Source: Escherichia phage vB_EcoS_MM-1
Sequence record: PV577657
Length of the DNA: 64,000 nt
Direction: 5' to 3' (one strand)
The notes under the pieces are model-generated. The model saw nothing but the letters and a program-made list of their open reading frames with translations. It was not told the origin of the DNA and did no database searches. The translations under genes were made by a program, and so were the position numbers. How positions within the stretch are numbered: the first letter of the stretch is position 1; every line of letters starts with the position of its first letter. Of the stretch, positions 387 to 29,296 are shown one piece after another.

Positions 387-469
387 TTTGGTGCACCCTG
401 TTCGTATCGAACGAACCTCTCAAGCTCTTCAGGCAAGCGCTAATCCATCTCAGCTAAAGGTGCAAATTT

Positions 470-546
470 TGGCAAACCTACTAGGACTTGAACCTAGACC
501 GTACGGTTTTGGAGACCGACATGCTGTCCAGTAACACTCTAGGAAT
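470..546 (-). tRNA. tRNA-like gene, possibly anticodon CCA (Trp); degenerate acceptor stem
   Basis: Encoded CCA (TGG on + strand), perfect T-arm CTAGG/TTCAAGT/CCTAG, anticodon-like loop CTCCAAA; acceptor stem has 2 mismatches. Confidence 0.4.
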
Positions 547-553
547 GCAGGAT

Positions 554-630
554 TGGCGTCCTGTGCGGGGATCGAACCCACAAATCCTACCTTGAAAGGG
601 TAGTGACTTTACCAGTTTGTCTAACAGGAC
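554..630 (-). tRNA. tRNA-Glu (anticodon UUC)
   Basis: 7-bp acceptor GTCCTGT/ACAGGAC, T-loop TTCGATC, anticodon stem CTACC/GGTAG with loop CUUUCAA, encoded CCA. Confidence 0.7.
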
Positions 631-637
631 TTAAATT

Positions 638-728
638 TGGTGTTGGATGATGGAGTCGAACCACCCGAGACCCTTCCGAGTCGGCAGATTTACAGTCTGC
701 TTCGCTACCTCTACGATACTAATCCAAC
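638..728 (-). tRNA. tRNA-Tyr (anticodon GUA), long variable arm
   Basis: Acceptor GTTGGAT/ATCCAAC, anticodon arm GCAGA-CUGUAAA-UCUGC (same as the E. coli tRNA-Tyr anticodon arm as I recall it), 88 nt class II, encoded CCA. Confidence 0.7.
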
Positions 729-856
729 ATATTTAAAAGTATTCAAATACTAGTTTAAACACTTTTAGATATGTTTCCAAATTAGATAACTATTATATCA
801 AGTTTTATGGCACTGAGCAAGTCAAATTTTAAAGAACTTGCTCAGTGCTGTATTAG

Positions 857-1132
857 TTAGTCGAACTTAGGAGCGACAGTTAAGGAGAATGGAAGTTCGA
901 AAACTTCTTCGCCCTCATCACTAACAGTAATTACACGACCTTTAAGTTCAGACATTGAAATATCAATATCAGCTTTTGCATCTGGAGCCATGCCAGCTTC
1001 AATACATTTAGCTTTAACTTCCGGCAGAAGTTCTACATCGTAGAAATAAAGCCATTCAATCTCACCTTCCCAGCCTTCCCAGGATTTACAGATTGCACTT
1101 TCAATACCAGTTGCTATAACACGATTTTGCAT
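857..1132 (-). CDS. hypothetical early protein
   Basis: 91-aa ORF with AAGGAG RBS and upstream T5-type promoter. Confidence 0.65.
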   Translation of the reverse strand: MQNRVIATGIESAICKSWEGWEGEIEWLYFYDVELLPEVKAKCIEAGMAPDAKADIDISMSELKGRVITVSDEGEEVFELPFSLTVAPKFD

Positions 1133-1139
1133 TCGTTAA

Positions 1140-1200
1140 CTCCTTCATCAATTTATATAACTATTATACCAGAAATTTAAAGCAAAAGGCAAGTACATTT
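1140..1200 (-). promoter_or_regulatory. T5-type early sigma70 promoter
   Basis: Minus-strand TATAAT followed by conserved ATAAATTGATGAAGGAG initial transcribed region/RBS. Confidence 0.5.
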
Positions 1201-1222
1201 TTAAAAATTCTGTTTGGAGGAG

Positions 1223-1429
1223 CTAAACTCCAGATTCTTCAGCTAAGTCTAGGCTAATAAGAGATATAGCCATAATTGCTGCTCCGTGTTCTCTTTCTCC
1301 TGTCTCTTTAGCTAGGGTTATAATATCAAGAAATTGCTTATGAAAGTCTGCAACCTCTTGAGTCATACCTGCCTCAGCAATCATGCCTTTAAGCATGAAA
1401 CGTTGTGCGGTAATTTCGGGATTAGCCAT
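1223..1429 (-). CDS. hypothetical protein
   Basis: 68-aa ORF, GGAGAAA RBS. Confidence 0.6.
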   Translation of the reverse strand: MANPEITAQRFMLKGMIAEAGMTQEVADFHKQFLDIITLAKETGEREHGAAIMAISLISLDLAEESGV

Positions 1430-1589
1430 GTTGTTTCTCCAGTTTCATGTTTAATAGTCTACAAATAAAATCAATGTCTTCATCTGTGCCTAGATCTCTA
1501 TCTTCAAGAGTTGCCTTGAAGTTTTTCGTCAATTCCATGAGGATAACTTCTCTAGAACGACGTGTTGGCGGAGGTGGATGTCTATACAT
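1422..1589 (-). CDS. small hypothetical protein (55 aa, PPPP motif)
   Basis: Hand-translated ORF MYRHPPPPTRRS... with AAGGA RBS; stop overlaps next start (ATGGCTAA); below ORF-track cutoff. Confidence 0.35.
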   Translation of the reverse strand: MYRHPPPPTRRSREVILMELTKNFKATLEDRDLGTDEDIDFICRLLNMKLEKQHG

Positions 1590-1604
1590 CTTATTTCCTT
1601 AAGT

Positions 1605-1681
1605 TGGTAGGGGTGGTGGGATTCGAACCCACAAAACCTGAATTTTAAGTCCAGTACCTATGCCAATTCGATTACACCCCC
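1605..1681 (-). tRNA. tRNA, anticodon tentatively UAA (Leu-like) but class I length
   Basis: Perfect T-arm GTGGG/TTCGAAT/CCCAC, G1-U72 acceptor, anticodon loop CUUAAAA; D-arm does not fold cleanly by hand. Confidence 0.5.
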
Positions 1682-1782
1682 ATGTAATCAGTTTATTAGT
1701 TGATACATATTATAGCCTAGTGAAAATCCTACTACTAGTCCCACAAACCAACCAATATAATAATCTTTTAGTTTCACAGGTA

Positions 1783-1968
1783 TTATCCTCGTTCAATATC
1801 TAGGGAAACACCGCAGTTAGGATTAATACCTGTACCGTTGCAATTTGAACAAATCCAGATATTGCAAAAAGTATCTCCTGCTTCTGCATCAGAACTTTCA
1901 CCAATTCCCCTACACTCAGGGCAGGCACATTCTTCTAGCTCTTGCTTGAGTTCTTGAAACTTGGACAT
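1783..1968 (-). CDS. small Cys-rich protein, putative zinc ribbon
   Basis: 61 aa with CxCPxC...CxxxxCxxC...C spacing. Confidence 0.6.
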   Translation of the reverse strand: MSKFQELKQELEECACPECRGIGESSDAEAGDTFCNIWICSNCNGTGINPNCGVSLDIERG

Positions 1969-2186
1969 ATAGTCTCCTTAGTCAATTACTTTTGAGGCTT
2001 CAAGGGAGTCGATATAGTATACGTTTTCTACCATAATCATATAATCTGCCACTTTATCCATAGCTTGGGCCTCAGAGGTAGCTCTGGCTAACCTATATCC
2101 TTTTTTATATTCATCCGGGTATTCTCTATCTTGAATAAATACAACATAAACTATGTATAATTCCACTTGTAATCCCCTAATTAAGT

Positions 2187-2264
2187 TGGTGGCTCCCCGA
2201 GGATTCGAACCTACGTACCTTCCGGTTATGAGCCGGGTGCTCATACCATATGAGCTTGAGAACC
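2187..2264 (-). tRNA. tRNA with CAU anticodon (Met or Ile2)
   Basis: D-arm GCTC-ATATGGTAT-GAGC, anticodon arm CCGG-CUCAUAA-CCGG, T-loop TTCGAAT, acceptor with two G-U pairs, encoded CCA. Confidence 0.6.
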
Positions 2265-2270
2265 AGAATT

Positions 2271-2359
2271 TGGCGGAAGAAGTGGGAATCGAACCCACAA
2301 GGCTATATTTCAAACCGACAGATTAGCAATCTGCTGCAATACCGTTATGCTATTCTTCC
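2271..2359 (-). tRNA. tRNA-Ser (anticodon GCU), class II
   Basis: Acceptor GGAAGAA/TTCTTCC, anticodon arm GCAGA-UUGCUAA-UCUGU, long variable arm, T-arm GTGGG/TTCGATT/CCCAC. Confidence 0.6.
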
Positions 2360-2380
2360 GAATTTATAAGATATATTATA

Positions 2381-2902
2381 TTAGAAATTTAGCTTCATAG
2401 CAAGAAAATTTTTCAAGTTTTCGGTAGACATCTCATCCACATCTACGGGAGAAACAAAGCCGTTTAATTTTCTAGCAAATTTTTCACCCGCAGGATCGTT
2501 GTCTCCGACAGCTACCAATTTAAAAGGTAATAATTTCAGTTGCTTTAATAACGCTTTTCCTGGAGAAGAACCTAACATTGCCAGGGCTGGATAACCAGCG
2601 TTATGTAGCGCAACTGCCTTAAATACAGATTCAGCGATCAATACTACTTTTTCATCTCCATTGAGAGTTTCTAGTCCCCATACACACTGGGTAGTAGAAT
2701 AAGTAAAATATTTAGCTTCAAAGGGACACTTACCATGACCTTTTGGAGCAGAAGGATTATACGTCTGATAGCCTCGCAACATCCCGGAGAAGTCATACAA
2801 CGGGACTGTTAGCCATCCTTCCGGACTTAACCAGCAATGATATTTATCTGTATCAAATCCTCTGGATAAGAGGTGCTGTGTTAGCTCATCAACATTCATA
2901 TT
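2381..2902 (-). CDS. Toprim-domain protein (stand-alone primase-like/nuclease-like fold)
   Basis: Conserved Glu (IAES) and GDNDPAG DxD motif; likely start MNVDELTQ after GAGAGGAA RBS. Confidence 0.6.
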   Translation of the reverse strand, partial: NMNVDELTQHLLSRGFDTDKYHCWLSPEGWLTVPLYDFSGMLRGYQTYNPSAPKGHGKCPFEAKYFTYSTTQCVWGLETLNGDEKVVLIAESVFKAVALHNAGYPALAMLGSSPGKALLKQLKLLPFKLVAVGDNDPAGEKFARKLNGFVSPVDVDEMSTENLKNFLAMKLNF

Positions 2903-2904
2903 TG

Positions 2905-2990
2905 GTTCCTCTCTCAAATTTATAGATATATTATACAGAGAATTTAGCATTCAAGCAATCAAATTTTTTAACTTTTTAGAGGAAAATCAT
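2905..2990 (-). promoter_or_regulatory. T5-type early promoter
   Basis: Minus-strand TTGCTT -17- TATAAT, then conserved ATCTATAAATTTGAGAGAGGAA. Confidence 0.6.
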
Positions 2991-3069
2991 AGGGCACTTA
3001 AGGGTAGCAGATAAGTGGGGAGGACCAAAATTTGTGACCCCACTAAAAATCCGGGGGCAATTTTTAAAG

Positions 3070-3110
3070 ACCCCTTGACATTTTCGCTGGGGTAGTGTAA
3101 AGTATATGTT
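3070..3110 (+). promoter_or_regulatory. sigma70-like promoter of counter-oriented island
   Basis: TTGACA at 3075-3080; AT-rich -10 candidates 17-23 bp downstream. Confidence 0.4.
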
Positions 3111-3165
3111 ATGGATGAGTGATCAAAGAGACACACATTTTCTATATACTAGGAGGTGTCAAAAT

Positions 3166-4155
3166 ATGACAGAAGAAGTAGCTAAGAGTCCTGAGACCGT
3201 CGCTAGCGTTGCAGCAGAACTGCACCGTCACGAGGAATCAGATAAGAAAAAGTGGGAGAAGGTCAGAGCCTACGAAGAAAAACATCGTGAACACGATGAT
3301 GAAGAAGAAGATGACGATGATGAACATTGTCATAAATATGGAAAACATAAAATGCAAGAACCAGTAAACGTATTCACTAGTGGCTTCCCTGGCCTACTGG
3401 GTGGTTACCCAGCAAACGCAGGTGCTTTCGGTGGTGAAGGTATGGGACTATTCGGAGCTATCCTAATCGGTGCTCTATTAACCGGCGGATTCGGTGGTTT
3501 CGGTGGATTCGGTGGACGTGGTGTAGTTGGTGAAGGTACCGCAGTTGATGCAGTACTTCAGAACCAAGATACCGCTAGTATTCTAGCAGCTATCAACACT
3601 ACTCGTACAGAGGCTAACCAGGGTACTGGAGCTGTTTTAAGCGCAGTTAACAATGGTTTTAGCCAGACAACCCAAAACCAGAGCCGTGATACTCAGTCTG
3701 TACTAACTACGATCTACGGTACAGATGCTAATCTGTCTAATCAGATCTGCCAGGAAACTCGCAACGTTATTCAGGGTCAGTTCGATCTTTCTCGCCAGAT
3801 TGATCAATCTTTCGCAGCTAACCAGATAGCTCGTGCACAAGATAAGTTTGATTCTGCACAGATCGCTTTCCAGCAGACTTTACAAACTAATAACCAGTTT
3901 GCCGCTGTTCAGGCTCAGATGTGTGCTAACCAGAACTCTCTGGAACGTCAGATCGCTGAATGTTGCTGTGAACTTCAGACTGCGATCGCTGGTGTAACTA
4001 CTGCGCGTATCCAGGATGAGTTAGACGCATGTCGCCTACGTGAAGCAATCGCTGCGGGTAGCGGTGCTAACGGTCAGGTAATTAATCAAATCGCTTTAAG
4101 TCTTGGTGCTATCACTCAGACTCTGGCTGGTCTGCAGGCTAAACTGCCGGCTTAA
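3166..4155 (+). CDS. acidic N-terminus / Gly-zipper hydrophobic segment / Q,N,T-rich coiled-coil protein
   Basis: AGGAGG RBS before MTEEV; D/E-rich N-terminus with HCH motif; GGFGGFGGFGG segment; host-optimal codons. Confidence 0.7.
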   Translation: MTEEVAKSPETVASVAAELHRHEESDKKKWEKVRAYEEKHREHDDEEEDDDDEHCHKYGKHKMQEPVNVFTSGFPGLLGGYPANAGAFGGEGMGLFGAILIGALLTGGFGGFGGFGGRGVVGEGTAVDAVLQNQDTASILAAINTTRTEANQGTGAVLSAVNNGFSQTTQNQSRDTQSVLTTIYGTDANLSNQICQETRNVIQGQFDLSRQIDQSFAANQIARAQDKFDSAQIAFQQTLQTNNQFAAVQAQMCANQNSLERQIAECCCELQTAIAGVTTARIQDELDACRLREAIAAGSGANGQVINQIALSLGAITQTLAGLQAKLPA

Positions 4156-4176
4156 TATTAAGGGGAGGAGCCCATT

Positions 4177-4593
4177 ATGAGTAAATATGGTTTTGTAAAT
4201 AACGGACTTAATCAAAGTATGGGCTCCCAGCAGCCCATTCCGGGTCTGGATAACCCCTACTTACAACAGTTGCAACAGCGTTTAGCAGAAGCGCAACAGA
4301 TGCAGCAACAACTCCAGCAAAACCCTGGAAGTGTGAGTCCTATGCAAATGATGCAGCAAATGAGCGGGCAGTCGCAAATGCCTCAACAAATGCAGCAACA
4401 GGTGCCTCAGCAGCAAGTTCAGCAACAAACCCAACAACCGCAGGTTTCTGCGGAAGGACAGGCAGTACTAGCCCTTTTCGAAGACTTCGCAAAGACAGAG
4501 GATGGGAAACAGCTTGTATCACTTATGGGTAAGTTTAATAGCTTCTGCCAAAGCCAAGTTGCAAAAGCTCAAAATGGGGGTAGTAACTCCTAA
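4177..4593 (+). CDS. glutamine-rich low-complexity protein
   Basis: 138 aa, long Q-rich tracts (QQMQQQLQQ..., QQVPQQQVQQQTQQPQ); strong RBS GGGGAGGAG. Confidence 0.7.
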   Translation: MSKYGFVNNGLNQSMGSQQPIPGLDNPYLQQLQQRLAEAQQMQQQLQQNPGSVSPMQMMQQMSGQSQMPQQMQQQVPQQQVQQQTQQPQVSAEGQAVLALFEDFAKTEDGKQLVSLMGKFNSFCQSQVAKAQNGGSNS

Positions 4594-4602
4594 GGAGGAA
4601 AT

Positions 4603-4797
4603 ATGTGTTGCAGAAAATCTGTTTCGTGCTGCCCAGTGCCTGTAGCACGTTGTTGCTCTCCAGCAATGTTTACGCAAATACCGGCGTTCAATCCCTTTGC
4701 CTTTAAGCCTACTCTTATCCTGCCCCCTAGAGTAGATTTTCAGTCAAGATTGGCCTCCCGTATGGGTGGTTGCTGTACACCGAGAGTATGGTTCTAA
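4603..4797 (+). CDS. small Cys-doublet-rich protein
   Basis: 64 aa with four CC doublets; RBS TAAGGAGG; directly precedes terminator. Confidence 0.55.
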   Translation: MCCRKSVSCCPVPVARCCSPAMFTQIPAFNPFAFKPTLILPPRVDFQSRLASRMGGCCTPRVWF

Positions 4798-4810
4798 ACC
4801 AAAAACAAAA

Positions 4811-4843
4811 GCCCCTGCCGAAAGGTAAGGGGCTTTTTCTTTT
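4811..4843 (+). terminator. rho-independent terminator
   Basis: GCCCCTGCC..GGTAAGGGGC hairpin followed by TTTTTCTTTT. Confidence 0.7.
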
Positions 4844-4850
4844 GCCTTAA

Positions 4851-4888
4851 ATACAGAAAAGCCCGCGCTCTCGTAGGAAACGCGGGCT
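4851..4888 (-). terminator. rho-independent terminator for SPFH gene
   Basis: GCCCGCG...CGCGGGC hairpin; T-run on minus strand. Confidence 0.65.
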
Positions 4889-4912
4889 TGGTTCGAAGAT
4901 TACGTGTAACTA

Positions 4913-5860
4913 TTACTTGTTACGCATATCCATGATCATTTGACCATCGTAGCCAGTACCTACCACAGTCTGAGGTACACCACCTTGATACTTCTGAGCA
5001 CGGATCATTTCAACTTCCAGTTGTTTCCAACGAATCATTTCAGGAGTAATGGTACGTTGCAATGCGGCGTTAGCTTCAGCTTCTTTCTTAGCTGCGTACA
5101 GTTTAGCATCTGCGTCACGTTCATTAGCAATAGCTTGGTTGTTACGAGCTTCACGATCTGCTTCTGCTTGTTTAACTTTTTGCTGTGCTTCCTGTTCAAC
5201 GCGAGCAAGTTCAGCTTTCGCAGCATTAACTTGCTCTTCACGAACTTTGGTATTCTGTACCTGTTCCATGATTACTGGCGGCAAGGTAATATCCTGAAGG
5301 AATACCTGCTTAACTGTGTAACCATATGGGCGCGCATACTCTTCAACTTCCTGTTGAATTGCAGTTTGCAATTGAGCCTGAATTTTAGCATCAAATAAAT
5401 CTTGTGCTTTAGGTACAGACTTACCAAACTCACGAATAGTAGACAGTAATTTTTCAGTTACATACTTGTCTAGTGCCTGATCCTGAGTACCTGCGTTAAT
5501 ACGGTTAATCGGTGCTTTAGAACCATCAAACTGCAACATAACAGTCAGGTCAACAGTGGATTTAAACTTATCCTGGCTAGGAACCTGAAGTTTATCTAAT
5601 TTTACAGCAATATCTTTTGTACTAAAAGTATCGAAAGATGCAAACGGGTTTACAAGATGGAAGCCCGGCAATACTGGATTAGGGTCTACTTTACCCAGGA
5701 ATGTTTGGGTTTTAACCGTACCATCAGAAACAATAGTATATGAATTAAAAGCTAGGATTAAACCTGCTAAACCAACTACAGCACCAATACCCCAACGTTT
5801 AATAGTACGAATTACTTTCTGCTCAGAAGTCAGTTCTTTCATATTTTTAGTAGCAAACAT
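4913..5860 (-). CDS. SPFH/band-7 (prohibitin/HflC-like) membrane protein
   Basis: N-terminal TM segment (WGIGAVVGLAGLILAF), SPFH-like core, C-terminal A/E/K/Q-rich coiled coil. Confidence 0.75.
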   Translation of the reverse strand: MFATKNMKELTSEQKVIRTIKRWGIGAVVGLAGLILAFNSYTIVSDGTVKTQTFLGKVDPNPVLPGFHLVNPFASFDTFSTKDIAVKLDKLQVPSQDKFKSTVDLTVMLQFDGSKAPINRINAGTQDQALDKYVTEKLLSTIREFGKSVPKAQDLFDAKIQAQLQTAIQQEVEEYARPYGYTVKQVFLQDITLPPVIMEQVQNTKVREEQVNAAKAELARVEQEAQQKVKQAEADREARNNQAIANERDADAKLYAAKKEAEANAALQRTITPEMIRWKQLEVEMIRAQKYQGGVPQTVVGTGYDGQMIMDMRNK

Positions 5861-5894
5861 ATATTTCCTTTGTTTTAGTTACAGTTAATAAAAT

Positions 5895-5969
5895 TGGCCG
5901 AGGTGACAGGATTCGAACCTGCATAAAGGAATTTAGAAGACTCCTGCCTCTCCCTTAGACTACACCCCG
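5895..5969 (-). tRNA. tRNA-Arg (anticodon UCU)
   Basis: Acceptor CGGGGTG/CACCTCG (1 mismatch), anticodon arm GGAGU-CUUCUAA-AUUCC, T-loop TTCGAAT, encoded CCA. Confidence 0.55.
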
Positions 5970-22364: not shown

Positions 22365-22554
22365 GGGTTTAAACGCCGCTTTGGAAAACGCATTAATGCA
22401 GCACTGGGAAACTGGCTATAAGGATGGTGTTGAATCCTGCGCTACTATGCTAGAAGTTATTGCTAATACCTTAATGGAGAAAGGCAATAAAGAATTAGCT
22501 GAGCTATTAGACAGTATTGGGCAAAACTTCAGAGAACAGGTGAAAAATGCGTAG
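22333..22554 (+). CDS. hypothetical protein
   Basis: 73-aa ORF. Confidence 0.5.
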   Translation: MAFSKPMLPDKGLNAALENALMQHWETGYKDGVESCATMLEVIANTLMEKGNKELAELLDSIGQNFREQVKNA

Positions 22555-23383
22555 ATTAATTATTATTAGCGGTGCAGGTTTGAGTGTTGAAAGTGGTGTA
22601 CGAGCTTTTCGTACTGATACTGCTAGTGGTAAAGCATTGTGGGATGACTATGATCTAGAAGAAGTATGTAATATTCATGCCTTTCGTGGTAATTTTTATC
22701 ATAAAACCCACATGTTTTACAACAAGCGTCGTGAAGAGCTAAAAACTGTTGAACCCAATCTTGCGCATTTGCGTATTGGTGAATGGTATAAACAATATCC
22801 AGGTCAAGTAGTAAACTTGACTACCAACGTTGATGACCTTATTGAGCGTGCTGGCGTCCCACATAGTGACATTCTGCACATTCACGGATATTTAAAAGAG
22901 GTTGTTGTAGCTGATAGCTACAATAGTAGCAATAAACGGATTATTGATGTAGGATACAATTCTATTGATCCAGATGATTATAAATGGGTTAAACCTAATG
23001 TAATCTTCTTTGGAGAGCATGCTCCTGCATACGCAGAAATGTATAATGTTTTTGATGGTATTACCAGTCAAGATATGATCATTGTGGTTGGTTGCTCTAA
23101 CCAAGTAATTAACTTCTACTGGGAATTATTTCCTGTTCTTAATTTGACTGCTGCGAAACTTATGGTTGTTAACTACTATGATAGTGCCCTCGCAGCGGAA
23201 CCGGTCTATCAAGGTATGACTCGTAGTGAGATGTACCAGCTGGAGGAACGCGGTATCCCTTACTGGAGTAAAGGTGCGGTAGATGCTTTCAGTGACCCTG
23301 ATTTTATTGCTCGTGTAGAAGCTCATTTAGAGGGTAGACCTTATGTGTCGAGAAGCAAGAGAAACAGGTATGTCCATAGTTAA
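22547..23383 (+). CDS. Sir2-family (sirtuin-like) NAD-dependent protein
   Basis: GAGLSVESGVRAFR NAD-binding motif, NVDDLIERAG, HIHG catalytic His; no obvious Zn-Cys module. Confidence 0.75.
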   Translation: MRRLIIISGAGLSVESGVRAFRTDTASGKALWDDYDLEEVCNIHAFRGNFYHKTHMFYNKRREELKTVEPNLAHLRIGEWYKQYPGQVVNLTTNVDDLIERAGVPHSDILHIHGYLKEVVVADSYNSSNKRIIDVGYNSIDPDDYKWVKPNVIFFGEHAPAYAEMYNVFDGITSQDMIIVVGCSNQVINFYWELFPVLNLTAAKLMVVNYYDSALAAEPVYQGMTRSEMYQLEERGIPYWSKGAVDAFSDPDFIARVEAHLEGRPYVSRSKRNRYVHS

Positions 23384-23552
23384 ATCTGTATATACACATC
23401 CCGACGATATATTTGTATGGGCAGATGGTAGTTGGTGCTATCGCTGTGAGCTGTGGGAGATGGACTATAAATCCGATGACTATGGTGTTATATATGTTGA
23501 TACGGTTGAGTATGATACGTTCTTAGAAAGGAACAAAAATGGAAATAAGTAA
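23370..23552 (+). CDS. small hypothetical protein
   Basis: ORF-track 23343..23552; probable start MSIVKSVY. Confidence 0.45.
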   Translation: MSIVKSVYTHPDDIFVWADGSWCYRCELWEMDYKSDDYGVIYVDTVEYDTFLERNKNGNK

Positions 23553-24045
23553 TACTCCAATTATTTTTCTAGATATTGATGGGGTGCTCAATTCGAGCAT
23601 CTCCCACCATCATGCACCTGATGACGAAAAGATTTTCTTTGGAAGTGACTGGGTTTTCAAGCCGCTTCTCAAGGCTTTTCAGGACTTTATTCGTCCTTCT
23701 CCAATAATGATTGTTGGAGTATCATCTTGGTTCTCTGTCAGAAATGAGATGGAGAACGTTCAGATTATGACCGGATTAGGTCTTATCGATCGTTTTCTTG
23801 GTACAACGGATTTTACTGGGGGTGGGTTATCTAGGGGTAATTCTGTCCTTCGCTTCGTTGAAAAGCATAAGCTCAAACATTGGTGTGTTCTGGATGACGC
23901 TGGTGCTATGATGTATCAGTATCCAACGGTTATAGTCAACGGTAGAACTGGAATAAATCTTCAAGATTTAATGGCTGTTAGCTATATGTTAGAGTTTAGT
24001 CCAGATCTTGAAATGTGTAAATCCTTACAACAATTTAAGGTGTAA
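23539..24045 (+). CDS. HAD-superfamily hydrolase-like protein
   Basis: N-terminal FLDIDGVLN motif (HAD motif I); 168 aa. Confidence 0.65.
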   Translation: MEISNTPIIFLDIDGVLNSSISHHHAPDDEKIFFGSDWVFKPLLKAFQDFIRPSPIMIVGVSSWFSVRNEMENVQIMTGLGLIDRFLGTTDFTGGGLSRGNSVLRFVEKHKLKHWCVLDDAGAMMYQYPTVIVNGRTGINLQDLMAVSYMLEFSPDLEMCKSLQQFKV

Positions 24046-24485: not shown

Positions 24486-24877
24486 ATGGAACAAGTATAT
24501 TGGCGTCAGATTGACCCTAGTTTGGTGAAACGTGCGGAGAAGCTGCTACAACGTTGGTTGTGGGTAAGACAAGCCTCCTTCACTTTTCCGAGCAGCAAAC
24601 AGATGATCCCTGTATTGGTGTTTTCCTATCCGGCTACGCCGGGGAATGGGAATTGGATTGGAATGAATTGTCTGCTATGGGTTTAATTGTTGCCCTAAAT
24701 TTCTCTTTGTTCCATCCACGTGGGTTGGCCATACGTCGTGTGCCGGGTGATGGTTGTTCGCCCCATTTTTTACAGGTGGAAGATGATATTTGGGAGTACA
24801 CTCCAGATATTCTCGCAGAAGCTAAAGAACAATTAAATCGTGTTGGGATTTATGTTCCAGGCCTAAATGATGAATGA
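24486..24877 (+). pseudogene. frameshifted paralog 2 (or -1 frameshift gene)
   Basis: N-terminal homology to paralog 1 in frame of 24486, C-terminal homology in frame of 24554; frames join at CTTTTC run near 24584-24587. Confidence 0.55.
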
Positions 24878-25016
24878 TTTTTATTAGCTGAAATTTGTAA
24901 TCCGGGCTATTAGTGCTCGGATTATTACATAATCTTTTCAGTCGATTGACAGTCAAAATAAATTGTCGTTGACAATTTGGATGGATTATGTAATAATATA
25001 TGTATTGGAGGTGAGG

Positions 25017-25469
25017 ATGTCATTCACACAGCAAGAACTTTTAGATAACTTCCGATATGAAGATGGTAAGTTATTTAGAACTACAGGAAGAAATGCAGGG
25101 AAAGAATGTTGTGTTTCTACAGGTAACGGATATTATCGTATATCTCTAGGGAATAGGACTATGCTTCGGCATAGAGCAATATTTTTAATGCATCATGGAT
25201 ACTTACCTGATTTAGTAGATCATGTGAATACTATAAAAGGTGATGATCGTATTGAAAATCTTAGAGAGCAGACAGTATCCGGTAATCTAAGAAATATCAA
25301 ATATAAGAAAGGAATGCATGTTTACCCTTCTGGTAGTAAGAACTGGCAAGTGGTATTTACTATTAACCGTAAACGTATAGTTAAAGGAACATATGACAAC
25401 TATGAGGTTGCATGTTCTATGGCCAAGATGTTTAGAGGTCAATTATACGGTAGGGAATCAATCCAGTAA
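25017..25469 (+). CDS. HNH homing endonuclease (HNH + AP2-like DNA-binding)
   Basis: VDHVNTIKGDDRIENLR HNH motif; GGAGGTGAGG RBS before MSFTQQ. Confidence 0.8.
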   Translation: MSFTQQELLDNFRYEDGKLFRTTGRNAGKECCVSTGNGYYRISLGNRTMLRHRAIFLMHHGYLPDLVDHVNTIKGDDRIENLREQTVSGNLRNIKYKKGMHVYPSGSKNWQVVFTINRKRIVKGTYDNYEVACSMAKMFRGQLYGRESIQ

Positions 25470-25481
25470 AATTTCATTTGC

Positions 25482-25520
25482 AAGGGAGTATTATTTTATA
25501 GTATAATATTCCCATAAATG
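25482..25520 (+). promoter_or_regulatory. T5-type early promoter reading into untranslated leader
   Basis: TTGCAA -18- TATAAT then ATTCCCATAAATGAGAG; no start codon follows. Confidence 0.6.
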
Positions 25521-26004
25521 AGAGACATTAGTAAAAATTGATTTTGCTAATTTTTCTTGTTTACAATCCGCGATACGGAACAGTTAGGCTGCCCCATTAA
25601 GGGTTGTTTTAACTGTTACGTGTTAGTTTTTAAACAAATAGTTAATAGAATACTTAGCGATCTACATCCCGTAGGAACCCTGGTAAGGCCTCGAAGCAAC
25701 CTAGTGTGAGGTGGTTGTGAAGTGAGACGGGAAGAGTGAAAAACTCTGAGAAGTGATGACGTAAGGTATACTGCATCTAGTATGAGCTAGTACATGAAGC
25801 ATTAGGTGAGCAAATCTGGCTTAGCGGCCATCCTCAAGGATTTGTGCGGTATAGTGAAGCGGCAGTGTAGCGTGAAAGGGGAAGTTGCCACCCCCCTTCA
25901 GTATTTGCGATTAATTTGTTGAGAAATTGACAGTAACAGTTGTTCTATTCTTTCTGAATAGTCCTAAAGAAAACTTATTTCATTTCCAACACAGGAGTAT
26001 TGTT

Positions 26005-28791
26005 GTGTTCTCAATCCTACAAGGTCATGCAGGATTTCATCGCGATTTAGCCACAGGCATTTGGCGAGAAGTTAAAGCAGAAGACTATCTTTTTGCTAAA
26101 AGATTTTCCTCAAAGCATCCTGAAGGTAAACCAGCTTCAATGCCCTTCAAGTTTGATGTAATTGATGAAGTTGATCCTCAAACCCTAGTAGAAATGCTCC
26201 CTCTTATGAGACGTTTAACGTCTGACCCTCATATCGTTGCGGTACGAGGTCGATGTCTTGCACCCAAAAATAATGTGCGGCGTAAGAAGGGCAACTTTAA
26301 TGTATCTAACCCAAGTCATATAATTGCAATGGACGTGGATGGTATTGTAGATACAGGTGGTTGTAACAAGTTTGATCTTGTTGGCATGGCTCGACATATT
26401 ATTAGAATGTTAAATAGTATTAGTGAGGATATGTTTCCTCTTGATGCAGGGTTTATTGCTCATGCATCGTCTTCGGCTGGGCTAAAACCAGGTATCCGAA
26501 TGCACTTAATACTAGAATCTAATGTTAAAGTAACTCAGGGTCAAATCAAATTCTTATTTACATCTATCAATGAAAGTAGTAGACAAAAGTATGGCTTTGA
26601 TATTGCCGACTTAGCTTATTACTCTTCCGTACAGCTCCATTATTTTGCAGATCCGTTATTTACCGATGGTATAGTAGATCCGTTTAAGGCGGAGGGTGCT
26701 TCACGTCTGGTATTTGTTAAGGGTTCTAAAGTAAACTTACCTAATAATCTGGTTGACTATGAAACAACTAGAGGTGAGTTTAAGGAGGAGTTTTACTCTT
26801 TACTCGATCAAATTAAAGGTAAAAAAGCTGCCTCCGATAAAGTAGAGGAAACTATCAGCGAACTAGAAGAAGCTGAGGATGGAGTGTATCTACGTATCAT
26901 ACCTAAACTCTATCACAGAGCTTTAGAGGATGGTGTTGATTTTGCATGGCTAGAAAAAGAAATCCGTCCAGCCTTATCAGAATATATTGCAACCAAAGAT
27001 AATAGTCGTAATATTCAAGATTACTTTAATAACGGTCGTAAACAGGCTCTGAAAGCATTTGTTAATAATTCTAAACGCGATATACCTGATGTTTTAAAAG
27101 GTATTCCACTTAAAAAGCTAGAAACTAACTCTCTAGAAACTGATAACTTCTTGAAATTAAATACTGTACCACCAGAAGGTTATATGACTTTTGTAAAAGC
27201 AAGTCTAGGTACAGGTAAAACTACGGCGGTTGTGCGTTGGTTAGATTCAGGAGTTATTAAAGGTAATTTCTTAGCAATTACCAATACTCGAGCACTGGTA
27301 TCTTCAAATGCTAAGAAATTTAGTGCAGGACAATATGATAAGTCTGTAGATATGCTTAATTTTAAGCGTGGTGCTATTGACCGTATGTCCACAACTATTC
27401 ACTCTTTGCATAAGTTCAAGAGTTTTATTGGTCAAATCGATGCAATCTTTATAGATGAATGTGATGCTGTAATGAATGACCTATTATTCGCCCCGGTTGT
27501 TAAACAACGTCGTGAATGTATTCAGGTTCTTCGGGATATTCTTGCAACTGCAAAAATCATTATATTATCTGATGGGGATATTAGTGCAGAAACAATTGAA
27601 GCATATGGTTCTTTAATTGAGTTTGATAAACCGGTTGCATTTTATAATCATCACCGAAAAATGCTATCAAAAGCTCATGCCTACGAGTTCCCTGATGAAT
27701 CCAGTATTTGGGTTGCACTTCAGACTTCTCTAGAGATGGGTGAGAAATCTATCCTAGTATCTGACTGTGGGCCGGATGAACTGAATGAGAAGGGCATGGC
27801 GTTGCGTCGTAATACGGGTGCGTTAGTTAAGGAAATCCACTCAAACTCTACGTCTGATGTAGATATTCGACGTATTCTGGATTACACAACTAATGAGTTA
27901 ATTGACCAACAAATTGATTGCTTATTATGTAGTCCATCCGTAACGAGTGGTGTTGACTTCAACTATTTTGATAACGTATTCGTTATTACTAGAACCAGTA
28001 ACCAAGCGCCAAACATGCGTTTTCAAGCAATCAGGCGCGACCGTGGTGCTCAGAACATTTATTATTTTATTGATAAATCTACGAGTGGATTCTCCGCAGG
28101 CTCTGAACAATATAATATTGATGAAGGTTGGCTGGAGTTAGCACAGCAATTATACGCACGTCGTAGGGAGCTGGAGTCTAGGAACTATACTAGTACTTTA
28201 CGTTATTACTTGCTTGATCAGGGTGCAACTATTGATATTTTCAGTGAAAGCTGGGGAACTATCGAAGGTGCAGGTAAAGAGTATACAGAAGAGCGAATCA
28301 AAGCCATTTTGTATTCAACTCCTGATTATTGTGCTCCACGCCATGCAGATGCATATGAAGCTAAACTACTTCTTGTTCGCTATTATCATCTTGAGTCTAT
28401 TAAAGATGTAACAGTTGAGCATGTTGAGCAATACATTAAGGATAAACCGAATGATCGAGCGGCATTCTTCCATAAAATGCACGAGATGTTCTGGGAAGAT
28501 ATTAAGAAGTGTTCAAATGTCACTATCAAACCATTCATAGAAGCTCTGAAAGGCAAGAAGAAAGATTTCTTCCTTAAAACAGGTCAGAGTGCTAACCCAA
28601 AATATGCCAGAATGTATCTTGGTATGATGGGTATTGGCAAGGATATGAACACGGAGAATATTGTAGACTGGTACAGAACTTATTGTAAAATCGAGTGTAT
28701 GCCAATTCCTTTCAAATTCATGACAGAGGAAGAGAAGGCTATGGCAGAAGAAGTACTGTCCGAACTTGGAGCAACTAATGAAGACGCATAA
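26005..28791 (+). CDS. putative replication initiator: AEP/PrimPol-like N-terminal domain fused to P-loop NTPase (helicase-like)
   Basis: N-terminal IAMDVDG and GIRMHLIL (AEP motifs I/II-like); C-terminal Walker A SLGTGKTT and Walker B FIDECD; start at GTG 26005 after AGGAG (ORF-track 25927). Confidence 0.6.
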   Translation: MFSILQGHAGFHRDLATGIWREVKAEDYLFAKRFSSKHPEGKPASMPFKFDVIDEVDPQTLVEMLPLMRRLTSDPHIVAVRGRCLAPKNNVRRKKGNFNVSNPSHIIAMDVDGIVDTGGCNKFDLVGMARHIIRMLNSISEDMFPLDAGFIAHASSSAGLKPGIRMHLILESNVKVTQGQIKFLFTSINESSRQKYGFDIADLAYYSSVQLHYFADPLFTDGIVDPFKAEGASRLVFVKGSKVNLPNNLVDYETTRGEFKEEFYSLLDQIKGKKAASDKVEETISELEEAEDGVYLRIIPKLYHRALEDGVDFAWLEKEIRPALSEYIATKDNSRNIQDYFNNGRKQALKAFVNNSKRDIPDVLKGIPLKKLETNSLETDNFLKLNTVPPEGYMTFVKASLGTGKTTAVVRWLDSGVIKGNFLAITNTRALVSSNAKKFSAGQYDKSVDMLNFKRGAIDRMSTTIHSLHKFKSFIGQIDAIFIDECDAVMNDLLFAPVVKQRRECIQVLRDILATAKIIILSDGDISAETIEAYGSLIEFDKPVAFYNHHRKMLSKAHAYEFPDESSIWVALQTSLEMGEKSILVSDCGPDELNEKGMALRRNTGALVKEIHSNSTSDVDIRRILDYTTNELIDQQIDCLLCSPSVTSGVDFNYFDNVFVITRTSNQAPNMRFQAIRRDRGAQNIYYFIDKSTSGFSAGSEQYNIDEGWLELAQQLYARRRELESRNYTSTLRYYLLDQGATIDIFSESWGTIEGAGKEYTEERIKAILYSTPDYCAPRHADAYEAKLLLVRYYHLESIKDVTVEHVEQYIKDKPNDRAAFFHKMHEMFWEDIKKCSNVTIKPFIEALKGKKKDFFLKTGQSANPKYARMYLGMMGIGKDMNTENIVDWYRTYCKIECMPIPFKFMTEEEKAMAEEVLSELGATNEDA

Positions 28792-29296
28792 ACCAATGCC
28801 TCCTATGGCATTTATCCTAGAAAAGCTTAGGTATGACGAAAGTACTGGGGACTTAATTTGGTTATCTGGCCCAAGGAAGGGAAAGGTAGCGGGCTCCAAA
28901 ATGAAAACTGGGAGACAGCTAGAGTTTATGATAAATGGGGGGCGGACAGCTTACTTAGCCCATAGAATAATCTGGTTTATAAAGACAGGTGAAGATCCTG
29001 GAGATAAAACTATTGACCATAAAGACGGTGATAGTTTAAACAACTTGTGGGATAATTTACGTAAGGCTACCTATTCCGAAAATGGAAAGAATAAGAAGTG
29101 TTCTACTAATTCTACCGGATTCACTGGAGTTGTAAAACGAGGTAATAGGTATATGGCCTACGCTTACTGCGATGGAAAGCAACATATTTTTGGTAGACGA
29201 GATACCCCGGAAGAAGCCCATCAGCTATACCTTAGGGGAGTTAAAGAGCTGTTTGGTGAATTTAATCCCTCGGAGAGATATGACAGTGAAGAATAA
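28778..29296 (+). CDS. HNH homing endonuclease
   Basis: IDHKDGDSLNNLWDNLR HNH motif; overlaps 3' end of upstream gene. Confidence 0.8.
   Translation: MKTHKPMPPMAFILEKLRYDESTGDLIWLSGPRKGKVAGSKMKTGRQLEFMINGGRTAYLAHRIIWFIKTGEDPGDKTIDHKDGDSLNNLWDNLRKATYSENGKNKKCSTNSTGFTGVVKRGNRYMAYAYCDGKQHIFGRRDTPEEAHQLYLRGVKELFGEFNPSERYDSEE

Follow-up and report, generated by a model that had tools for sequence, protein, structure and literature searches.

The gene-free region directly upstream of the helicase gene D2 in T5-like phages very probably specifies a functional, structure-constrained RNA of the plus strand. We recognized it in a 64,000-nucleotide (nt) stretch of DNA from Escherichia phage vB_EcoS_MM-1 (PV577657), referred to below as the window, where it lies between an early promoter and the D2 start. 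The RNA is built from a 5'-terminal hairpin (H0), a conserved element (M1), a long-range rod, a three-way junction at which the rod meets a large head domain and a hairpin named P10, a further hairpin (M8) and a small hairpin before the ribosome-binding site. An initial annotation, made from the letters of the window, had listed a structured 5' leader or riboregulator and a stand-alone noncoding RNA among the candidates for this region, and covariation now strongly supports a structured plus-strand RNA. As read from the alignments, the compensatory substitutions show purifying selection on the base pairs.

Covariation and strand of the fold

We compared D2-upstream regions from 35 IMG/VR contigs, 10 metagenome contigs and several GenBank phages, the metagenomes contributing one new variant (locus L082). 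The structure of the head was written from the window sequence together with the compensations visible in relatives, and the resulting covariance model, R1, has 225 positions and 53 pairs. Thirteen distinct sequences form the window-type clade (ten close variants, L082, and the Pectobacterium phages DU_PP_V and My1), and within it 95.7% of 670 cells form standard pairs, compared with 34-46% when the 3' partners are slid by 1-3 columns. Two-sided changes are found in 28 of the 53 pairs, compared with 3-6 in the slid controls and 7.7 +/- 1.9 after shuffling, and 0 of 500 shuffles reached the observed number. When all 21 distinct sequences are taken together, 81% of cells are paired (37-50% in controls) and 31 pairs carry two-sided changes (9-15 in controls); the shortfall arises because the 5' half (P4-P5 region) of the T5-type and Klebsiella-type sequences misfits the window-type model. 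Percentages of this kind are inflated, since the structures were derived from the sequences that were counted and the alignments were fitted to the model, and this has to be held against our interpretation. Counts of two-sided changes set against slid or shuffled controls are more telling, and an independent count for the T5 type mitigates the bias. For that type a separate structure (P3, P6, P7 hairpin, P8 and P9) was counted on seven sequences: every one of the 238 cells pairs, and of the roughly 20 variable columns 12 make up six compensated pairs, compared with 0-1 when slid.

The helix that closes the head, P3, is 100% paired in 21 of 21 sequences and six of its eight pairs covary, with CUACA/UGUAG in the window, CUGCG/CGCAG in L004, CUGUG/CACAG in T5 and CUAGAA/UUCUAG in L030. 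The minimum-energy fold of the window contains a hairpin, CUAC-AUCCC-GUAG, which was rejected since the L004 type destroys it and keeps the long-range CUGCG/CGCAG pairing. Among the paired cells of the window-type clade 71 are G-U and 10 are A-C, which are G-U on the opposite strand, and the plus-strand fold is 10-40 kcal/mol more stable than the minus-strand fold in nine of nine types. Both the stability and the G-U excess agree with the direction of the promoter. The initial annotation had proposed looking for covariation in related phages, and compensatory changes there exceed the controls, on one strand.

Architecture of the RNA

The rod is formed on the plus strand by a 5' arm at 25611-25654 (P1 AACUGUUAC, P1b, P1c and P1e) and a 3' arm at 25900-25941 (AGUAUU ... 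AUUUGUU, GAGAAAUUGACA, GUAACAGUU). It comprises 39 base pairs (bp) in the minimum-energy fold of the window, and each of the eight types forms 30-39 bp; one or two small bulges break the duplex, which ends at the three-way junction with P3 and P10. When the head was swapped for a tetraloop, nine of nine sequences folded alike, the segment after M1 pairing with the segment before M8 over 30-39 bp. The arms share 49-67% identity between six sequence types, yet they always pair. Cognate arms give duplex energies of -25 to -36 kcal/mol, compared with -6 to -19.5 for arms of different types, and dinucleotide shuffles of the 3' arm give z = -3.2 to -9.1, values that are biased toward pairing by the delimitation of the arms from each sequence's own fold. 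At its predicted length the rod offers the stretch of near-continuous double-stranded RNA, at least about two turns, that is expected of an RNase III substrate.

One part of this duplex bears on a stem that the initial annotation had placed at about 25590-25625, between AACAGTTA and TAACTGTT. These two segments are indeed complementary, at 25579-25586 and 25610-25617 rather than at those coordinates, but the pairing is not conserved. Instead, TAACTGTTAC (25610-25619) pairs with GTAACAGTT (25933-25941); a G-to-A change in TAACTGTTAC of T5-type phages is matched by a C-to-T change at 25933-25941, T5 itself shows a G-U intermediate, and AACAGTTA in M1 is unchanged. We therefore rejected AACAGTTA/TAACTGTT as a conserved stem, as its 3' half pairs with 25933-25941 and the compensation is found there and not in AACAGTTA.

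The third arm of the junction is the hairpin P10 (25874-25899, plus strand), in which AAGGGG (25876-25881) and CCCCUU (25893-25898) enclose the loop AAGUUGCCACC. P10 is predicted in all types with differing stems, and G-C to U-A compensation (AAGUGG/CCACUU) is seen in L004 and L008-L014. The AAGGGG...CCCCTT stem of the initial annotation is this hairpin and is real, its pairing being kept in relatives via AAGTGG/CCACTT. Directly 3' of the rod, the hairpin M8 (CUAUUC-UUUCU-GAAUAG; 25945-25961, plus strand) is predicted in the window, and hairpins of other sequence occupy its position in L030, L036 and L082.

At the 5' end, H0 (GAGAGA-C-AUUAGUAAAA / UUUUGCUAAU-U-UUUCUU; 25520-25558, plus strand) is predicted in every type, with inner sequences that differ in Klebsiella-type (L030) and Pectobacterium-type (L036, L037) phages. 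M1 (25572-25610, plus strand), recognized by sequence conservation, consists of GAUACGGAACAGUUAGGCUGCCCCAU and a small hairpin directly 5' of the rod and is nearly invariant across Escherichia, Salmonella, Klebsiella and Pectobacterium phages. Its conservation lacks codon periodicity, all three codon positions being kept, and no reading frame is maintained. IMG/VR holds a single copy of the M1 pattern ATACNGAACAGTNNGGCTGC per T5-like genome, and all 32 carrier contigs had already been found via D2. Between H0 and M1, the loci L005, L025 and L034 (including SP3 and DT571/2) carry an insertion of about 97 nt, at about 1958-2054, flanked by an 8-bp duplication of TTTTTCTT. It resembles a small mobile insertion that the leader accommodates.

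The head (25656-25874, plus strand) has a length of about 220 nt and contains about ten helices enclosed by P3. In R1, P3 is split into P3a (25657-25659/25871-25873) and P3b (25662-25666/25866-25870). The 5' half holds P4 (25667-25672/25727-25732), P4a (25679-25681/25686-25688), P4b (25690-25693/25723-25726), P4c (25696-25701/25713-25718) and P5 (25733-25736/25744-25747), which is followed by a conserved joiner, GAGAAGUGAU (25748-25757). P5b (25758-25762/25859-25863) and P6 (25767-25775/25845-25853) then lead to P8 (25811-25816/25839-25844) and P9 (25818-25820/25827-25829). Together the last two helices form a module (25811-25844) with CAAAUC/GAUUUG around GGC-UUAGCG-GCC, a loop at 25821-25826 and a 9-nt pyrimidine-rich bulge on the 3' side. 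Within it, CTTAGCGG is invariant in 21 of 21 distinct inner domains, and the sequence of the P8 helix differs in each type. CTTAGCGG is found once in the region and four times in 128 kb (both strands), where about two occurrences are expected. One motif, UGUGAAGUGA / UGAGAAGUGA, recurs at a distance of 31 nt, at 25716-25725 (3' side of P4c/P4b) and 25747-25756 (the joiner after P5), and similar pairs are seen in L036 and L082; from their sequences, these may be two copies of a binding site.

Distribution and cassette exchange

A segment of 571 bases around the element is 100% identical to Escherichia phage vB_EcoS_MM-2 (Demerecviridae, Tequintavirus) and matches 445 phage records, nearly all of them T5-like Escherichia and Salmonella phages; by this similarity the window is T5-like coliphage DNA. 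Some short records named after other hosts, among them OR847565 (Listeria phage LM 4-11-1), OR844774 and others labeled as Listeria, Campylobacter or Klebsiella phages, hold a near-identical T5-like D2 and, judging from that sequence, are probably mislabeled or contaminated. In every enterobacterial T5-like phage examined, the element stands directly upstream of D2, on the strand of that gene, and once per genome.

Close relatives are 88-100% identical to the window at the two ends of the region (25502-25624 and 25932-26004). In T5 and many others a different sequence, without similarity detectable by blastn, takes the place of the middle (25625-25931), and D2 is 88-93% identical in the phages with a replaced middle. 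The versions are of near-equal length (307 nt in the window type and 303 nt in the T5 type, L015-L029) and are alike only in a few motifs. On these comparisons, everything inside helix P1 is exchanged between close relatives as one self-contained cassette. Recombination at the conserved P1 arms could produce such a pattern, and so could diversifying selection.

Five landmarks are found in all Escherichia, Salmonella, Klebsiella-type and Pectobacterium phages, namely M1 (RUACRGWWCRGUY), GAUCUNN, GAGAAGUG, CUUAGCGG and CAGYRYAG, and their spacing is constant within about 10 nt. Providencia phages (PR1, PSTCR5) and the Proteus phage Stubb have CUUAGCGG once in the equivalent region, and their single-sequence folds place it within long-range rods of 27-30 bp. 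Run with filters off, R1 recovers only the P8-P9 module in Providencia and Proteus phages (E-values of 0.006 and 0.027).

D2 homologs of Vibrio and Aeromonas phages share 25-34% identity, and they too are preceded by gene-free gaps, of 636 nt in PG07, 712 nt in Morian, about 730 nt in D302 and 1590 nt in Aeromonas phage TS3. Long-range helices are predicted in the Vibrio gaps (PG07, L085 1224-1859; Morian, L041 1660-2371; D302, L084 1273-2000), and a search of the Vibrio and Aeromonas gaps with R1 gave no match. In the Morian group the first 160 nt or so of the gap are conserved and the remainder is replaced in some relatives, which echoes the cassette pattern of the coliphages. The TS3 gap (L086 219-1808) contains an M1-like segment at 949-978 (blastn E-value of 0.005 in a small search), TTAGCGG at 699, 943 and 1518 (three copies compared with about 0.1 expected) and a perfect helix of 15 bp and 10 bp that joins 1014-1054 to 1639-1663 across 620 nt; no tandem duplication was found in it. 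This gap may hold the same RNA in an enlarged form. The Vibrio and Aeromonas cases, which come from single-sequence predictions, are leads for homology and not proof. Across genera, the size inside the rod ranges from 260 to 600 nt.

Transcription of the element and the start of D2

A consensus scan places an early sigma-70/T5-type promoter, TTGCAA-N18-TATAAT, at 25478-25507 on the plus strand (10 of 12 matches), followed by the T5-like initial transcribed sequence ATAAATGAGAGA and a transcript start near 25514. The initial annotation had recognized both promoter and initial transcribed sequence, with the promoter set 4 nt off at 25482-25511. A promoter is annotated at the equivalent place in AKFV33 and S114, and relatives have an equivalent promoter at equal distance. 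The region lies, as first described, between an HNH gene (stop at 25469) and the gene annotated as "replication origin binding", D2, with its Shine-Dalgarno sequence (SD) at 25994 and a GTG start at 26005; from the transcript start it is about 480 nt to the SD and about 490 nt to the D2 start.

No intrinsic terminator was found on either strand between 24800 and 26300, nor after the RNA in any lineage examined, and the promoter scan gave no antisense promoter inside the region. In Tequintavirus and Epseptimavirus the upstream promoter is the sole promoter before D2, so the D2 message must begin with the RNA element there. Phages without the HNH insertion have a hairpin followed by a T-run (ACCGAGTCATTTTGGCTCGGTTTTC) ahead of the promoter, which the terminator scan did not flag and which we nevertheless read as a terminator. 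With this hairpin before the promoter, the transcription unit appears to run from the promoter through the RNA and D2 to the genes beyond. Other arrangements are found in two groups. In the Proteus phage Stubb (L038), two perfect sigma-70 promoters (12 of 12 matches; 1705-1733 and 2435-2464) flank a noncoding region of about 700 nt, the second sitting between the RNA and D2, 36 nt ahead of the D2 start. Pectobacterium phages have a promoter-like site (10 of 12 matches) inside the 3' rod arm.

Between M8 and D2 lies an A/U-rich spacer with the SD AGGAG (25994-25998) and the GTG of D2 (25962-26007, plus strand; from sequence, the GenBank start and the minimum-energy fold). Here a local hairpin (25988-26011) is predicted in which AACACAG, 5' of and into the SD, pairs with UUGUGUU, the start codon and the next four bases, so that the start codon is in the stem and the SD mostly in the loop. 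The AACA...UGUU complementarity is retained in all types and genera, including Proteus, where D2 has its own promoter. This predicted hairpin is possibly an independent brake on D2 translation.

Coding content and known RNA families

The initial annotation had stated that the region has no open reading frame (ORF) on either strand. Taken literally this does not hold, as ORFs of 50 and 38 codons on the plus strand and of 40 and 33 codons on the minus strand exist, but none of them is conserved among relatives in frame, position or strand. Two ORFs, 25557-25709 and 25806-25922, are annotated as "hypothetical protein" coding sequences in GenBank record PV577658, and other GenBank records annotate different small ORFs in the region, some on the minus strand. 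These small annotated coding sequences are probably spurious calls inside the RNA. A conserved small ORF had been named beforehand as a finding that would speak against an RNA, and none was found among the relatives.

The 4227 models of Rfam 15 were searched in E-value mode against 24500-27000 and 11 related loci. The only hits were chance-level matches of 16-29 bits, far below thresholds, to eukaryotic snoRNA or miRNA models or unrelated sRNA models; no riboswitch, T-box, 6S, RNase P, tmRNA, CsrB or GOLLD/ROOL/OLE model was among them. An RNase P-like reading, in which GGCUUAGCGG was likened to GGCUUAUCGG of M1 RNA (the RNase P RNA), was rejected since no RNase P model scores. The GGA-rich sequence had prompted the idea of a CsrB-like sponge, which was likewise rejected, there being no repeated array of GGA-loop hairpins and no match to Rfam Csr/Rsm models. 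ARAGORN found seven tRNAs at 389-5969 and neither a tRNA nor a tmRNA near 25.5-26 kb. A host origin is not indicated either, as none of 5,426 complete E. coli genomes showed similarity. In the full-text literature that was searched, no RNA is described at the D2-upstream locus, although older T5 papers were largely out of reach and an earlier report is possible. We rate the element as a new family of large structured phage RNA outside the catalogued families.

Possible functions

The segment 25514-26004, read rightward from the early promoter as the first ~490 nt of the D2 message, very probably acts as RNA rather than as coding sequence. The function that we favor for it, with a probability of roughly 40%, is that of a domain of the early D2 transcript that binds protein and serves in processing and regulation. 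A phage replication protein, in the first place D2 itself, or a host factor would bind its head, with the UUAGCG loop and M1 as likely contacts, and the long rod would admit a double-strand-specific RNase, host RNase III for instance. Cleavage of the rod would detach the folded RNA and leave a D2 message that starts at M8, and the amount of D2 would thereby be set. RNase III processing stalks, as in rRNA precursors and T7 early mRNAs, are near-continuous duplexes that join the ends of a folded domain, and the idea of processing comes from the same geometry here, a duplex of at least 30 bp joining the domain ends. The G-rich, C-poor and tightly folded leader may also shield the long untranslated stretch from Rho; it would be a poor substrate because Rho prefers C-rich unstructured RNA. 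The link to D2 consists of direct adjacency on the same strand, the lack of an intervening terminator and, in Tequintavirus and Epseptimavirus, the position of the sole D2 promoter upstream of the RNA; the gene-free gaps with predicted long-range helices before the Vibrio and Aeromonas D2 homologs point in the same direction.

Besides the inflated pairing percentages, several points weigh against this function. Binding, cleavage and regulation are all things that we infer from sequence, and known translational operators that bind proteins are much smaller and simpler than this element. We found no expression platform, as in the predicted folds the SD and start codon pair in their local hairpin only and not with the large RNA. 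Finally, the promoters of Stubb and the Pectobacterium phages would allow D2 to be expressed there separately from the RNA; an independent RNA accounts for this better than a leader does.

Such an independent RNA is a possible though rather doubtful alternative. Made from the early promoter and trimmed at the rod, it would be a stable RNA or ribonucleoprotein of about 330-390 nt that acts elsewhere, for example on replication or host machinery or as a decoy against host defense, and its position next to D2 would reflect co-expression or partnership and not control of the gene. A terminal rod closing a multi-branched head with invariant loops is typical of stable functional RNAs, the 260-600 nt inside the rod exceed what a leader usually needs, and the region inside P1 is swapped as a self-contained cassette. 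The Stubb promoters, one before the RNA and one between it and D2, and the promoter-like site in the Pectobacterium 3' rod arm point the same way. However, a terminator after the RNA is missing in every lineage examined, the promoter of T5-type D2 lies only upstream of the RNA, and a trans-acting RNA leaves its strict positional linkage to D2 across genera unexplained.

It is unlikely that the region is a transcript-dependent replication origin, where a G-rich RNA would form a persistent RNA-DNA hybrid or mark the site opened by D2, with the fold controlling the hybrid. A cis-acting origin for the adjacent initiator was among the candidates of the initial annotation. The idea has some appeal, since a strong early promoter precedes a sequence that adjoins the gene of a presumed initiator helicase and sits roughly at mid-genome (57.3 kb in the 117.8-kb genome of MM-2), and ColE1 RNA II is likewise a structured pre-primer of about 550 nt. 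The unusual composition, described initially as G/A-rich and of higher GC content, is borne out for the core at 25656-25874, with 48.9% GC compared with 39.0% in the whole window. Among all 219-nt windows its purine content (59.8%) ranks at the 97th percentile and its G content on the non-template strand (31.5%) at the 99.9th, and the GC skew is +0.29. This G-richness is not conserved in distant relatives, however, with skews of -0.01 (Vibrio phage PG07) and 0.08-0.10 (TS3 and D302). No iterons were found in 25300-26200, only chance-level two-copy direct repeats, and the region has no antisense promoter. The GC-skew sign changes of the window, at about 19.6 and 48.5 kb, track gene orientation and not the element, and what selection clearly maintains is base pairing within a single strand.

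A very large riboswitch-like sensor for a small molecule, an ion or a tRNA is very unlikely. The element does sit in the 5' untranslated region as riboswitch and attenuator leaders do (promoter at 25478-25507, no terminator, D2 start at 26005), and its junctions and loops contain conserved unpaired nucleotides. Against this, no riboswitch or T-box model of Rfam matches, and neither a terminator/antiterminator pair nor an SD-sequestering helix from the large RNA was found; window-type and T5-type heads cannot be aligned outside a few motifs, unlike the way ligand pockets evolve.

That the region has no RNA function at all, and instead holds small protein genes or a decaying mobile element or intron remnant beside a homing endonuclease, is hardly credible: the two hypothetical coding sequences of PV577658, the small ones annotated elsewhere and the HNH genes flanking D2 invite the idea, but the annotated ORFs are missing from relatives and differ between records in their strand, frame and position, and the element, with its compensatory substitutions, occurs in phages without the HNH gene, including T5. 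The initial annotation had mentioned a mobile intron remnant. No group I or II model matches the window or the 11 related loci, no ORF is split, and the element occurs once at the same place; a group I/II intron is not supported, as the flanking HNH and D2 ORFs are complete and the element is intergenic and present with or without the HNH gene.

D2 and the genomic neighborhood

D2 (26005-28791, plus strand; GTG start, PHROG 3712) encodes an SF2 "origin-binding" helicase of 928 amino acids and is context to the RNA rather than part of it. The Pfam domain Herpes_ori_bp matches residues 394-533, and T5 D2, a biochemically characterized bipolar SF2 helicase with a proposed role in initiation, has Herpes_ori_bp at the equivalent position (PMC3632103). 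Pfam gave only Herpes_ori_bp/SF2 helicase; residues 1-390 gave no primase family at E-values up to 10. The initial annotation had called the protein PrimPol-like, a label that stays unconfirmed. A PDB sequence search aimed at the PrimPol/AEP question gave no match, a single-sequence AlphaFold model of the N-terminal domain (no alignment) was uninformative with a pLDDT of 34, and DVD and SxxG...H motifs spotted by eye are a lead only.

Two free-standing HNH homing-endonuclease genes (PHROG 99) bracket D2, at 25017-25469 and 28766-29296. The upstream one (plus strand, Pfam HNH_3) is an optional insertion upstream of the promoter that is present in some relatives only and missing from T5 itself. 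It carries its own version of the promoter, and locus L028 holds both versions of promoter and H0 in tandem. A 25-nt direct repeat of 76% identity (25471-25495 and 25977-26001) makes the HNH-linked promoter region resemble the ribosome-binding region of D2 and is possibly a footprint of the insertion of the endonuclease gene. Further upstream are two Sir2-like genes (22547-24045), and the seven tRNA genes are clustered on the minus strand.

Comparison with known systems and significance

In its mode of action the element would be most like a processed structured leader, such as the RNase III stalks or the lambda N leader, or like ColE1 RNA II, and its build resembles GOLLD, ROOL and OLE. RNase III stalks of 16S/23S precursors, T7 early mRNA and the lambda N leader share with it a long near-continuous duplex formed by the flanks of a folded domain and, in the phages, a place upstream of a gene in an early transcript. 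In T7 and lambda, however, a simple hairpin of about 60 nt makes up the site, and the rod predicted here encloses a multi-helix RNA of about 290 nt that has conserved loops. With ColE1/pMB1 RNA II, T4 oriF/oriG and the primary origin of T7, the likeness lies in a folded G-rich transcript of several hundred nt with a strong promoter in a replication region, and in covariation of the fold. Our element, known from its sequence, differs in having no RNA I-type antisense promoter, in a transcript that enters the gene of an initiator helicase instead of leading to a DNA start site, in G-richness that is not conserved in distant relatives and in lacking sequence or Rfam similarity to these origins.

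GOLLD, ROOL, OLE and raiA are likewise RNAs of several hundred nt with many covarying helices, conserved loops and a function that cannot be deduced from sequence, and GOLLD and ROOL also occur in phages. In contrast to these families, which it does not match, the element is fixed in a 5' leader beside one gene in one phage family. The pRNA of phi29 is similarly specific to a phage family, made from an early promoter and conserved in secondary structure while its sequence diverges, but it measures 120-174 nt, has a terminator at its end and belongs to the packaging motor, and T5-like phages package with a terminase and have the present RNA tied to a replication gene. Phage translational operators (T4 gene 32, gene 43 and the regA targets) resemble the element as RNAs in leaders of replication genes that the gene's own product could bind to set its level. 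They are hairpins or pseudoknots of about 20-40 nt over the ribosome-binding site; the present RNA exceeds them in size more than tenfold and stops some 50 nt short of the SD.

Although T5 is a textbook phage with relatives widely used in biocontrol and in screens of defense systems, an RNA of about 400 nt before the gene of its presumed replication initiator is unannotated in these genomes or misannotated as small "hypothetical proteins". RNAs so large and complex are uncommon in bacteria and phages, and those that are understood are mostly ribozymes or cores of ribonucleoproteins. The covariance model and the coordinates given here allow the annotation to be corrected in several hundred genomes. 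If the RNA controls or partners D2, this would explain why the intergenic block is exchanged as a unit between phages, and it would provide a direct handle on how T5 DNA replication starts; the origins of T5 have reportedly been seen only by electron microscopy, in the 1970s. A bolder suggestion, which we regard as quite improbable, is that the RNA represents a previously unrecognized class of large phage RNA that acts with D2 in starting T5 replication, as a cofactor, scaffold or primer that licenses or positions D2. If this were true, the window-type, T5-type and Epseptimavirus-type cassettes would be specificity alleles matched to their D2 variant, and a classical model phage would need a structured RNA to start its replication.

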